Shown: positions 34,407 to 46,673 of the stretch, piece by piece | How the letters are laid out: each line of letters begins with the position of its first letter | Numbering within the stretch: the first letter of the stretch is position 1 | DNA from: Pseudomonadota bacterium | GTDB taxonomy: Archaea; Thermoplasmatota; SW-10-69-26; JACQPN01; JAJPHT01 | DNA length: 56,955 bases | Direction: 5' to 3' | Assembly: GCA_021325135.1 (NCBI GenBank) | Contig: JAJPHT010000031.1 | Span: 1-56,955, forward strand | Notes under the pieces: generated by a model | Database searches by the model: none | What the model was told of the DNA's origin: nothing | Seen by the model: only the letters and a program-made list of their open reading frames with translations | Made by a program: the position numbers and the translations under genes

Positions 34407-34497
34407 TGTCACGTCTTGACGCGACGACGCCACGACGCAACGATTCTCCCAAACGTCGCGTCGTGGCGCCGTGGCGTCGTCGCGTCAAGACGTGACA
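34407..34497. repeat. Long intergenic palindrome with 28-bp perfect arms and 8-nt internal periodicity
   Basis: TGTCACGTCTTGACGCGACGACGCCACG (34407-34434) and its exact reverse complement (34470-34497). Confidence 0.9.
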
Positions 34498-34512
34498 AGA
34501 GAAGCAGGACGG

Positions 34513-35103
34513 TCAGCGTCGTCCGCGCCCGCCGCGGTGGCCGCGGTGGCGTCCGCCGCCCCCGCCGCCGCGGTGCTGCTCGGCGCGGGCCCGGTCGCGG
34601 GGGTTGCGTCCCGCCTCCTTGCCGCGGGGCGCGTCCTGCTGCGGCGCGGGAGCGCTCTCGGGCTCCAGCTCGCGCTTGGCCTCGCGCAGGTCGTTCCACT
34701 TCTGGTGGTAGACGTTCTTCACGAACCAGGCGGAGGCGCTTCCGAAGTAGACCTTGAAGAGGGGGCGCCCCTCGGCGTCAAGCTCGGTGACGTCGTAGGC
34801 GACGCCGAACGCGGGGCGGCCGTCGTTCCCCATGACCTGCCCCATGCTGTTGCCGGGGAGCCCCTTGTAGACGACGGCGCCGTCGTCCTCCTTGCGCGAC
34901 TCGTAGTCGCCGTGGACGACGGGCACCGCGGCGGGAAGCGCGGTGGGCTGCGGCGTGTTGAGGTCCAGCGAGAAGCCGCCGCCTTCGGCCGGGCGGCAGC
35001 GCAGCTCGAAGGGCTCGCCGGCCCGGTTCTTCCAGTCCACGAGCCGCATGAGCGGCAGGCCCGTCTTCCGGGCGATGTGGTCCATCTCGCTGGGATCCAG
35101 CAC
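34513..35103 (-). CDS. Hypothetical protein with Arg/Gly-rich C-terminal tail
   Basis: Host codon usage; ends HRGGGGGGRHRGHRGGRGRR. Confidence 0.65.
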   Translation of the reverse strand: MLDPSEMDHIARKTGLPLMRLVDWKNRAGEPFELRCRPAEGGGFSLDLNTPQPTALPAAVPVVHGDYESRKEDDGAVVYKGLPGNSMGQVMGNDGRPAFGVAYDVTELDAEGRPLFKVYFGSASAWFVKNVYHQKWNDLREAKRELEPESAPAPQQDAPRGKEAGRNPRDRARAEQHRGGGGGGRHRGHRGGRGRR

Positions 35104-35124
35104 GGGCGCGCCAAGCCTCCGACG

Positions 35125-35847
35125 CTATAAAACAAGTTCGGCCGGGGAGGGCTTGGGGGCGAGGCGCGCCTCGACGACGCGCCACACGCCCCCGTCGCGG
35201 CGCCAGTCGGCGCGCGCCTGCGCGACCTCGATGCGCTTCTGATAGCACGGCGCGTCCAGCACCAGCGTCTCGTACTCGCCCCCCTCGCCCGCGAGGTGGA
35301 GGCCGTGCCGCTCCCGCAGGCGCAGCAGGTCCTTCGTGGCGGCGGGGTCCAGCCGGCGGCCCAGCCACGCCTCGCCCAGCCCTTCGGCCGCGACGGCGGC
35401 GAAGCGCACGTCCCAGCCGGGGCCCGAGACGGTCTCCAGGACGGCCTCGGGGCGCTTGTGCCAGAGGGGCGTGAAGCTCCGGAGGCCCAGGCGGTGGCCC
35501 ACGCCCTCCAGGCGCGTGCGCTGGTACTCGCTGGCCAGGGCGCCGCTCACGAAGCCGCCGATGGGGAGCGCCGCGAGGGCGGCCTCCAGGTCCGCGACCT
35601 CCGCTTCCTTCTCGCCGCGCGTCTCCACGGCCACCAGGGGGAGGCCCAGCGCGGCGGCGACGAAGGGCGCCAGGTCGGTGTTGGGGACGTGGAACATCCA
35701 CGAGTCGGGGGCGCGGGGCCGCACGGTGACGACGTGCGTCACGTCCCAGCCGGAGCACTGGGCCGTGTGCAGGGCGAGGATGCTGTCCTTGCCTCCCGAG
35801 ACGAGCGCGGCGACCTTCGTGGCCCGCGCACCGCGCGACCGGAACAT
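35125..35847 (-). CDS. dph6: Diphthine--ammonia ligase (Dph6)
   Basis: SGGKDS, SWMFH.PN, GEKE.E, SEYQ..R, PLW, GEGGEYETLV.D.P. Confidence 0.92.
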   Translation of the reverse strand: MFRSRGARATKVAALVSGGKDSILALHTAQCSGWDVTHVVTVRPRAPDSWMFHVPNTDLAPFVAAALGLPLVAVETRGEKEAEVADLEAALAALPIGGFVSGALASEYQRTRLEGVGHRLGLRSFTPLWHKRPEAVLETVSGPGWDVRFAAVAAEGLGEAWLGRRLDPAATKDLLRLRERHGLHLAGEGGEYETLVLDAPCYQKRIEVAQARADWRRDGGVWRVVEARLAPKPSPAELVL

Positions 35848-35892
35848 AAGGGAGCGCGAAGCTTTTTCAAGGCCCAACCCTCCTGCGGCGCC

Positions 35893-44731: not shown

Positions 44732-44787
44732 CACGCGGCGCACACCGATGGGGGCACTTGAAGCAACCGGCGGACGCTTCTTTCGCC

Positions 44788-44893
44788 CTCCTTGGTCAGG
44801 GGTCCAGAGAACGCGACGAGCGCGAAGAGCGCCAGGGACGCGATGTTTCCCTTCGTCGCGCTCTTCGCGTTCTTTGGACCCTTGATCAGAGAG
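44788..44893. repeat. Long palindromic element, copy 2
   Basis: GGTCAGGGGTCCAGAGAACGCGACGAGCGCGAAGAGCGCC ... CGCGTTCTTTGGACCCTTGATC, near-identical to copy 1, same orientation. Confidence 0.9.
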
Positions 44894-44897
44894 ACAA

Positions 44898-46043
44898 TCA
44901 CGCGGCCTTGACGGCCCGGGCGATCGCCTCGCCGCACTCGTGGGTCTTGGCGGAGCCGCCCAGGTCGTAGGTGAGCGCCTTGCCCTCGGCGACGACGTGC
45001 GCGACGGCGCGGTCCAGCGCGGAGGCCGCGTCGAGCATCTTGCGGTCGTGGTGCTTGTGGCCGAGCCACTCCAGCATCATCTGGGCCGCGCCCACGGTGG
45101 CGATGGGGTTGGAGACGCTCTGGCCCGCGTGCTTGGGCGCGCTGCCGTGGATGGGCTCGAACATGGCGTGCCGGTCGCCCACGTTGCCGCTGGCGGCCAT
45201 GCCCATGCCGCCCTGGAGCACCGCCGCGAGGTCGGTCACGATGTCGCCGAGCATGTTGGACGCGACGCAGACGTCGTACCCCTCGGGGTTGCGGACGATC
45301 CACTGCGTGAACGCGTCGACGTAGGCGTAGTCCTTCTCCACCTGCGGGAAGCCCTTGGCGACCTCGTCGTAGACGGCGCGGAAGAGCTGGCTCCCGCGCA
45401 GCACGTTGGCCTTGTCGATGCAGGTGACGCGCTTCTTGCCGTCCTTGGGCGCGCCCTTGCCGCGCTGCATGGACAGCTCGAACGCCTTGCGCGAGACGCG
45501 CTCGGCGCCCTTGCGCGTGATGATGTTGGTGTCGGTGGCGACCTCGGCGAGCCCGTCGAGCCCTTCGCCGTAGCCGCGCTTCAGCCAGCCGCGGGCGGGC
45601 GTGTAGAGCCCCTCGGTGTTCTCGCGGATGATGACGAAGTCGACGTTCTGGGGCTTCCAGACGTCCATGAAGGCGTTGCCGATCTTGTGCTTCACGCCGG
45701 GATACAGCTTGGTGGGGCGCACGTTGGCGTAGAGGTCCAGGCCGAAGCGCAGGCCGAACACGATGCCCGCGCCCGCGATGTCGCCCGAGGGGAGGTTCGC
45801 GCCCGGCCAGCCCACGGCGCCCAGGAGGATCGCGTCCGCCTCGTCGCGGCAGTAGGGGAACGCCTCGGGCTCCCACTCCTTGCCGGTCTTGAGGTAATAC
45901 TCGCCGCCGCAGGCGTACTCCTGGTACTGCAGGTGCAGGCCGAAGCGCTCGCTGGCGGCGTCGAGGACGCGGCGGCCCTCGGCGAGGACCTCCTTGCCGA
46001 CGCCGTCGCCGGGGAGCATGGCGATCTTGTACGCCTTGGTCAT
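44898..46043 (-). CDS. Isocitrate/isopropylmalate dehydrogenase family protein (LeuB-like)
   Basis: LPGDGVGKEV, LYANVRP, IRENTEGLY, DKANVL, NMLGDIVTD, FEPIHGSAP. Confidence 0.93.
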   Translation of the reverse strand: MTKAYKIAMLPGDGVGKEVLAEGRRVLDAASERFGLHLQYQEYACGGEYYLKTGKEWEPEAFPYCRDEADAILLGAVGWPGANLPSGDIAGAGIVFGLRFGLDLYANVRPTKLYPGVKHKIGNAFMDVWKPQNVDFVIIRENTEGLYTPARGWLKRGYGEGLDGLAEVATDTNIITRKGAERVSRKAFELSMQRGKGAPKDGKKRVTCIDKANVLRGSQLFRAVYDEVAKGFPQVEKDYAYVDAFTQWIVRNPEGYDVCVASNMLGDIVTDLAAVLQGGMGMAASGNVGDRHAMFEPIHGSAPKHAGQSVSNPIATVGAAQMMLEWLGHKHHDRKMLDAASALDRAVAHVVAEGKALTYDLGGSAKTHECGEAIARAVKAA

Positions 46044-46123
46044 GGGGCGGGCAACCTGGGGTGGGGTCAAAAGCGTTGGGGCGCTCCTCCCAGGGGTGCA
46101 TCCTGGAATCTCCGCGTGCTGAT

Positions 46124-46673
46124 GCCCTTCATGCGATGACGCGGAGGGCCCGGGGGATGCGGTGATTCCGGGAGAAGGGTCTTGGAAAGGACAGACATCC
46201 CTGGGGCGTGACGATTTCGAGGGGAATGCGGCATGCCGACGTGCCTCCAGAGGCGAACGCCCTGGCGACGACGGTTCTTGGGTGTGCGATTGGGCTACAC
46301 CGGGTGCTCGGGCCGGGCCTGCGCGAGCAGGACTATGCCGATTGTCTTGCGATCGACCTGGATCAGCAGGGGCTGGTCGTGGAGCGGGAAAGGCCGCTCT
46401 CACTGGTCTACAAGGGGCGCGCGTTGTCGCGGGCGGCGCGCTTGGATCTGCTCATCGAGGGCAGGCTCCCCGTGGAATTGAAGGCCGTGGACACCCTCCA
46501 CCCGCACCATTTCCTGCAGGCTCGCTCCTACGTCCGGTTCGGTGGGTTCCCACTGGGCATCCTCGTAAACTTCCACGCAGCCCGGCTCATCGACGGCTGG
46601 CATCGCATCCTGCCTGGCAAATCCATCCCATCCACCGCGCCCCCCGCGGCCGCCGCGTCATCGCATGAAGGGC
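46124..46673. mobile_element. Putative inverted-repeat-bounded GxxExxY element (550 bp)
   Basis: GCCCTTCATGCGATGACGCGG (46124-46144) and exact reverse complement (46653-46673); imperfect pairing continues about 25 nt inward; atypical codon usage inside. Confidence 0.6.

Follow-up and report, generated by a model that had tools for sequence, protein, structure and literature searches.

The window analysed here is the whole of a 56,955-nucleotide (nt) contig (JAJPHT010000031.1, assembly GCA_021325135.1), which is contig C3 of the 3.77-Mb assembly G000 (72% G+C, 94% complete), and it carries three periodic intergenic palindromes (P1, P2 and P3) as well as a gene of the GxxExxY family (PF13366) enclosed by inverted repeats. 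On balance, the three palindromes are probably non-autonomous, hairpin-forming derivatives of palindrome-bounded GxxExxY cassettes, presumably moved in trans by the encoded PD-(D/E)XK nuclease. GxxExxY genes are associated with hairpin arms, and arm comparisons show paralog-specific sharing of these arms between cassettes and gene-less hairpins. If the nuclease maintains or spreads the hairpins, as this arrangement would suggest, the system would be a functional analogue of REPIN/RAYT, the partnership of repetitive extragenic palindromic (REP) doublets with REP-associated tyrosine transposases, built on a different enzyme fold. An earlier, sequence-only reading of the same DNA had proposed a relationship of this kind in an archaeon. 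The archaeal identity of the host is borne out by the presence of ribosomal protein S28e and a diphthamide synthase domain, and the proposed relationship stands insofar as multi-copy, lineage-specific hairpins share arms with the GxxExxY repeats, while spreading by the nuclease remains inferential.

The genome contains four PF13366 genes, all of which lie between inverted repeats of 41-57 nt spaced 468-504 nt apart, and these four cassettes are the strongest long-spaced inverted repeats genome-wide (16 pairs, versus 3 in a mirror-repeat control). A de novo scan for short-loop palindromes with arms of at least 24 nt found 152 of them, versus 30 among the mirror repeats that served as control, and clustering placed them in five large families (Table 1). 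The cassettes and the families are connected by their arms, each consisting of a cap followed by short tandem units (iterons). The arms of the gene-bearing copy on contig C29 are 57 nt long and 98% complementary and have the same sequence as P2 and P3; gene-less copies are 90-100% identical to the cassette inverted repeat over these 57 nt. The inner 39 nt of the arms around the C30 gene are common to family B, and the arms around the C6 gene match family C. A search of the congeneric genome G002 returned 61 matches for the arm of one cassette and 30 for the ortholog of the window's own (class D) cassette, and the G002 loci fetched for sequence proved to be gene-less hairpins with the same caps and iterons as the cassettes. 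Five independent gene-to-family pairings are therefore counted in two genomes, namely families A, B and C here and two in G002.

Table 1. Features of the window and palindrome families of the genome; positions refer to the window unless a contig is named, and for families they give the gene-bearing copy
Feature	Position	Strand	Description
Solo arm, family C (GAATCTCC-type 8-nt units)	32205-32254	-	86% identity over 50 nt to C6 cassette arm
P1, gene-less hairpin, family E	34407-34497	unassigned (.)	37-nt arms, 95% complementary, 17-nt loop; whole feature 34403-34502
Window copy of GGGGGGTTC-type family	42207-42293		
P2, gene-less hairpin, family A	43762-43871	-	47-nt arms, 89% complementary; whole feature to 43873
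P3, shorter family A copy	44788-44893	-	41-nt arms, 83% complementary
Left arm, class D cassette	46124-46164	+	Cap CATGCGATG, then degenerate 9-nt units
GxxExxY / PDDEXK_3 nuclease gene	46226-46699	+	157 amino acids from in-frame ATG; PF13366
Right arm, class D cassette	46633-46673	-	Pairs with 46124-46164
Family A (window copies P2, P3)	C29:59230-59811		31 loci: 30 gene-less and 1 gene copy
Family B (no window copy)	C30:27015-27632		~25 loci
Family C (window solo arm)	C6:66956-67532		~15 loci
Family E (window copy P1)			22 loci, 14 full hairpins; no gene-bearing copy found
GGGGGGTTC-type family			38 loci; no gene-bearing copy found

The suggestion of the sequence-only reading that each cap class may be served by a different paralog fits families A, B and C and the two families of G002, but not family E, for which a gene copy is missing. 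That reading had compared the palindromes with the inverted repeat of the window's own GxxExxY gene. The arms of P2 and P3 do pair with a paralog, but the paralog is the one on C29 rather than the window gene.

The same layout of gene plus arms extends well beyond this genome. It was seen at 26 of 30 loci in related genomes and, in a set of 77 loci spread over many phyla of bacteria and archaea, at 52, with similar iterons such as CACAGAG, CGCAAAG and CACGGAG. The wider search was seeded by a tight alignment of eight sequences; the same search with the window protein alone found no relatives. Sister genes on the protein tree have a common iteron type in most pairs, a pattern that fits a gene and arms that would be inherited as a unit. 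The family itself is very large, with at least 599 matches to one conserved motif in data holding one genome per species.

The gene-less copies behave as units in their own right. When oriented by the loop, all 28 full copies of family A have one polarity, a conserved loop GAAAGGAAAC and identical arm mismatches, and this uniformity argues that multiplication took place in the gene-less form itself, not through many independent decays. The lengths fall into two groups, ~100 nt or ~580-620 nt, with no intermediates between ~120 and 550 nt.

The three window palindromes were found where the sequence-only reading had placed them, and their arm complementarity (Table 1), folding and periodicity bear out its description. 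Folded as single-stranded DNA, P1, P2 and P3 give z scores of -10.7, -9.9 and -7.0 against dinucleotide-preserving shuffles, none of 200 shuffles being as good. Each arm of P1 consists of a cap followed by three 8-nt units, ACGCGACG / ACGCCACG / ACGCAACG, and the autocorrelation at lag 8 is 0.84 and 0.79; P2 has the cap GTCAAGGGTCCAGAGA followed by 9-nt units, and P2 and P3 show autocorrelations of 0.74-0.78 at lag 9. In both cases 0 of 1000 shuffles reached the observed value. The polarity of family A is defined by its purine-rich loop, which places P2 on the minus strand, and P3 is missing about two 9-nt units in one arm. P2 and P3 are ~90% identical and belong to one family, contrary to the earlier view that the differing caps exclude an exact sequence family, and the third arm that had been read as that of a palindrome (ACGCGGAGG...) belongs to the GxxExxY inverted repeat, not to P3. 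The units of P1 equal the left-arm series of family A minus one base per unit (24 of 24 aligned bases match), which makes the C29 enzyme, or a lost sister paralog, a candidate partner of P1.

The placement of the palindromes just after stop codons was likewise confirmed, with a stop codon at most 13 nt from each of the three. P1 begins 13 nt beyond a TGA, and its other end is 15 nt short of the stop of a convergent gene; P2 is placed between two convergent stops, and P3 ends 4 nt before the stop of an isocitrate/isopropylmalate dehydrogenase-family gene. Inspection of the window palindromes found no T-run after the hairpin on either strand. The preference is general for family A, in which 28 of 29 copies lie outside gene calls, versus 21% of random segments, and a stop codon lies at a median distance of 17 nt. 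Intergenic copies are depleted in divergent-start gaps (4 of 56, versus 20% of such gaps). These context statistics come from a crude caller based on open reading frames (ORFs) and third-position G+C (GC3), which over-extends gene starts and makes some wrong calls.

The palindromes are neither single-copy nor conserved by descent, two of the three properties that, according to the sequence-only reading, would mark them as simple terminators. The genome-wide search gave 31 loci of the P2/P3 type and ~22 of the P1 type, and families A and E were missing from the 14 further genomes of the order that were compared, four of which belong to the same genus. At the site orthologous to P1, the congener G003 has a 16-nt spacer without a palindrome, the palindrome of G002 is family-C-like and encloses a second one in its loop, and G004 has the remnant of a different iteron array. 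These comparisons show a recent, lineage-specific gain of families A and E. In G002, palindromes of one family, of the GACCCGAGAA type, sit in the loops of three other palindromes (L199 C106:35260-35520, L200 C6:4350-4640 and C16:10433-10747). Of the six class D gene-less loci fetched from G002, two have a nested palindrome in the loop. Such nesting would make the tips of hairpins hot spots of insertion. For families A, B, C and E, the element boundaries (with a slack of 3 nt either way, the exact ends being uncertain) had no more direct repeats of 3-8 nt than did re-paired controls. The sequences show insertion into palindrome loops and into spots just 3' of genes, without detectable target-site duplication.

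The presence of the gene and that of the palindromes were compared by sampling 140-200 kb from each of six relatives. G002, of the same genus, has three GxxExxY genes and 11 palindromes in 141 kb, 10 of them of iteron type; its palindrome density (7.8 per 100 kb) compares with 4.0 in the present genome. G007, G009 and G017 have no GxxExxY gene, and no iteron-type palindrome was seen in their samples of 160-200 kb each, so that hairpins of this kind are not equally common in genomes without the gene. The correlation of copy number with gene presence proposed by the sequence-only reading holds for these three relatives but not for G015 and G016. The former has five matches to the gene family and no palindrome in its sample, and the latter has two GxxExxY genes and no more than one or two palindromes. 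Within so small a set of related genomes, the gene looks necessary but not sufficient for the palindromes, and the correlation is not a statistical test since the sampled genomes are kin. The gene is absent from 19 of the 30 relatives searched.

No other enzyme in the genome presents itself as a partner. The Y1 transposase of the RAYT type (PF01797) has no match in this 94%-complete assembly, while a control search finds the family in six reference genomes. TnpB was also not found in the genome, and the single DDE transposase is not near any palindrome copy.

The GxxExxY protein of the window matches PF13366 over profile positions 3-116 of 117 (E 2.3e-29, 102.6 bits, with a cut-off of 22). Residues G29, E34, Y37, D74 and K86 do not vary among 26 homologs, E84 reaches at least 90% conservation, and the catalytic residues E...D...ExK are intact in all four paralogs of the genome; the enzyme therefore looks active, as far as can be predicted from conserved residues. 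An AlphaFold2 model (pLDDT 91) has a restriction-endonuclease-like fold. The nearest solved structures, an uncharacterised Spirosoma protein, Cas4 and Hjc, are matched with modest scores (best match 3ijm, Z 8.3; Cas4 and Hjc at Z 5-7), and a sequence search of solved structures gave nothing significant, with Cas4 as the top match at E 0.46. These fold matches are generic for PD-(D/E)XK proteins, so that no specific activity can be read from the fold.

The arms of the window's own, class D cassette are 41 nt long, with 36 of 41 positions complementary, and lie 468 nt apart; the reading frame of the gene continues through the right arm. The sequence-only reading had described this inverted repeat as periodic like the palindromes. 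The window arms are only weakly so (left arm not significant, 178 of 1000 shuffles; right arm marginal, 10 of 1000), but the arms of the G002 ortholog consist of clean 9-nt units. The cassette occupies the same site in both species, with a homologous cap (window 46040-46760 versus G002:C21:30960-31600), and is absent from the orthologous site in the congener G004. In G002 the interior is inverted with the caps in place, the outcome to be expected of recombination between inverted arms. Between G000 and G002, gene and arms have ~73-74% identity and the flanks 82-90%; the proteins are 61% identical, and the flanking genes 89-90% at the DNA level. Within G000 the class D cassette has no other copy, gene-less or not.

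Some cassettes of this genus, namely that of the window (46166-46180), those on C30 and C6, and L015 and L030 of G002, carry a box of the form GATTCC(C)GGAGAAGG at 0-30 nt inside their left arm. This box resembles the purine-rich loops of gene-less copies and could be a promoter or a recognition site. Its occurrence is confined to some cassettes, and it is not relied on here.

The favoured model of these elements starts from a full cassette of ~0.55-0.6 kb, in which two inverted arms (each a cap and 3-4 iterons of 8-9 nt) surround a small PD-(D/E)XK nuclease gene, and from a gene-less copy that consists of two arms closed by a short purine-rich loop. Each paralog has its own arm class and, usually, its own gene-less population, P2 and P3 belonging with the C29 paralog. 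The nuclease would recognise the iteron arms cognate to it, whether in duplex form or folded into a hairpin or cruciform, and its cuts would enable gene-less units to copy or move in trans. Integration would favour hairpin-prone spots, just downstream of stop codons or in the loops of other palindromes, and would leave no target-site duplication.

Several observations weigh against the model in this form. Family E, to which P1 belongs, is without a gene-bearing copy in a 94%-complete assembly, and so is the 38-copy GGGGGGTTC-type family; family E, moreover, shows no greater decay than the families that have a gene (mean pairwise identity 0.865, versus 0.79-0.91). The window cassette is without gene-less copies in this genome, though its G002 ortholog has them, and G015 and G016 carry the gene, yet 200 kb of each contain no more than one or two palindromes. 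In the C29 cassette the arms can be written as X and the complement of X, whereas in the gene-less copies the complement of X is combined with another left arm, Y, so that these copies are not simple deletions of the present C29 gene copy. Covariation in the stems of family A is limited to one variable position and is not clearly compensatory, the copies being too alike for stem covariation to be informative. A metagenome scan with the core of family A gave no match and an exact-protein look-up of the dehydrogenase next to P3 gave no record, so that strain-level insertion polymorphism was not obtained by either route. That any GxxExxY protein cuts or moves DNA is a prediction from sequence, and PD-(D/E)XK nucleases are hydrolytic, so that the joining of strands would need host factors.

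The main rival explanation turns the relationship around and takes the gene to be a selfish, homing-type invader of cognate palindrome loops. The palindromes would then spread by another route, and a gene-bearing copy would be an "infected" palindrome. This explanation is unlikely, though it accounts well for some of the data: the gene always stands where the loop would be, loops are insertion targets for other palindromes, only one of the 31 family A copies carries the gene, and orphan families exist (family E and the 38-copy type). The class D interior, inverted between G002 and G000 and more diverged than its flanks, can be read in the same way. A homing endonuclease gene would be compatible with the position in the loop, but efficient homing should convert many copies, and there is exactly one gene copy per family, or one gene per ~30 gene-less copies. 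The C29 arms (X and its complement) also differ from the typical gene-less pair (Y and the complement of X), most pairs of sister genes agree in iteron type, the genome yielded no other candidate for a mobilising enzyme, and the sampled gene-lacking relatives have no iteron-type palindromes. That each family has a single gene copy and that genes and iterons have diverged together both favour a nuclease-driven spread of the hairpins over invasion, although neither is decisive.

Three further explanations can be set against the same data. Rather improbable is that the nuclease and the hairpins form a domesticated system that serves the host, for example in hairpin or cruciform processing, mRNA 3'-end stability or defence, with hairpins as sites of action and not as parasites. 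The window cassette does look vertically inherited at the same site in two species, there is one gene copy per arm class, as in RAYTs, hairpins lie consistently just 3' of genes, and the fold bears a weak resemblance to Cas4 and to Hjc, the Holliday-junction resolvase. Those fold matches are generic, however (Z at most 8.3), and the hairpin families are species-specific with fast turnover, orthologous sites hold different families or none, and the gene is absent from most of the relatives searched. It is less probable still that the hairpins are tombstones, left where a full cassette had inserted at each site and a deletion between the arms then removed its interior. Palindromes that are long and widely spaced are prone to deletion, and truncated copies exist (C26:33905 and C40:116300), but independent deletions would not yield 28 full copies with the same loop, polarity and mismatches, nor are there intermediates in length. 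Finally, the placement directly after stop codons would suit hairpins of the host that have no connection with GxxExxY and are conserved by descent, serving as ordinary terminators or in the stabilisation of mRNA. This is very improbable, in view of an arm identity to cassette repeats (57 nt, 90-100%) that is too high for coincidence, of copies ~90% identical to one another with none in congeners, of the empty orthologous site in G003 and of the lack of a T-run on either strand; the host is moreover archaeal, and hairpin-type intrinsic terminators are not the rule in archaea. As a class assignment, the intrinsic terminator was rejected on arms of 37-57 nt in tens of copies, with no T-run and no counterparts in congeners.

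Derivation of the hairpins from GxxExxY cassettes, which is the favoured explanation, invites comparison with known systems of dispersed repeats. The closest is REPIN/RAYT, in which REP doublets and their tyrosine transposases form "REPtrons" (PMC3116915, PMC3337134, PMC3733652). Common to both are intergenic hairpin elements of ~100 nt that number in the tens, an enzyme gene present once and bordered by inverted copies of its repeat (C29, C30 and C6 with families A, B and C), a separate repeat population for each paralog, lineage-specific families, and insertion without target-site duplication. The elements described here differ in that the enzyme is a PD-(D/E)XK protein of ~120-150 amino acids (PF13366) and not an HUH/Y1 transposase, that the arms are tandem 8-9-nt iterons behind a cap and not GTAG-/CGTC-tagged REP sequences, and that the host is archaeal and the activity of the enzyme only predicted. 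Membership of REPIN/RAYT proper fails on the defining enzyme, as PF01797 is missing from the genome. For a mobilisation of the repeats by their enzyme, as in REPIN/RAYT, the signs are indirect: the species-specific expansion, the empty site orthologous to P1 and the nested insertions.

MITEs (miniature inverted-repeat transposable elements), which have terminal inverted repeats and are moved by a DDE transposase in trans, resemble the present elements in that gene-less derivatives share termini with one gene-bearing parent, in their dispersed, intergenic copies and in lengths that fall into two groups. Unlike MITEs, the whole element here is one long palindrome, its parent encodes no known transposase, and the only DDE transposase of the genome is unlinked. 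A classical MITE fails on the target-site-duplication comparison, made with re-paired controls for the four families A, B, C and E. With IS200/IS605 and REP-targeting insertion sequences the elements have in common the lack of target-site duplication, insertion in palindrome loops (the nested copies) and, plausibly, a dependence on DNA secondary structure; unlike in IS200/IS605, the ends are symmetric rather than asymmetric subterminal hairpins, and neither TnpA(Y1) nor TnpB occurs in the genome. The intervening sequences of 23S rRNA also enclose a small ORF between long complementary arms, but the present elements lie in protein-gene spacers, and the 23S intervening-sequence protein family PF05635 is absent from this genome.

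Other repeats of the window deserve brief mention. The solo arm of family C lies 14 nt after the stop of a 1121-amino-acid ORF; it has no paired arm and a fold z of -1.1, and the missing partner marks it as half an element. The GGGGGGTTC-type family has arms of the form GGGGGGTTCGGGGGGCG.AGCCCCCTGACGT, each with its own small hairpin, and nowhere in the genome does a GxxExxY or other gene lie between them; in its flanks, 4-nt direct repeats are marginally commoner than expected (13 versus 7.2). A perfect 21-nt inverted repeat with a 3-nt loop (50377-50421) is unrelated to families A, B, C and E and to the GGGGGGTTC type. The window also contains three very long open frames (35128-38889 on the minus strand, 28826-32188 and 47545-50670). 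The 1254-amino-acid frame matches Pfam only at a C-terminal diphthamide synthase domain and may be an over-extended ORF in high-GC DNA, and the frames of 1121 and 1042 amino acids have no Pfam match.

Taken together, the observations point to a non-autonomous repeat paired with a cognate single-copy enzyme, resembling REPIN/RAYT with a different kind of enzyme. A broader proposal can be put forward as a tentative one, and with clearly less assurance than the derivation of the three window hairpins. GxxExxY proteins may be the enzymes of a widespread and so far undescribed class of mobile elements in bacteria and archaea, structure-specific PD-(D/E)XK nucleases that would read iteron arrays in hairpin or cruciform arms and propagate both their own 0.5-kb cassette and the cognate gene-less hairpins, with a preference for hairpin tips, in what would be a second, independent invention of the REPIN/RAYT lifestyle.

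A partnership of GxxExxY cassettes with gene-less hairpins has no description in the literature searched, in which mentions of GxxExxY do not concern repeats and "TIGR04256" does not appear. A 2012 survey of the PD-(D/E)XK superfamily lists the function of PF13366 as "Unknown", and REPtrons and TIRtrons are built on tyrosine transposases. The link to palindromic repeats gives this large family a testable role. The genome and its congener together offer a natural experiment on specificity, in which paralogs with distinct arm classes and their own copy populations exist side by side, along with a "retired" cassette and orphan families. Hairpin repeats break assemblies and crowd the 3' ends of genes, and knowing what they are aids annotation. 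If the proposed relationship is true, GxxExxY nucleases would be a second enzyme class among the few systems that generate dispersed hairpin repeats in prokaryotes, and the lifestyle would extend to the archaea.

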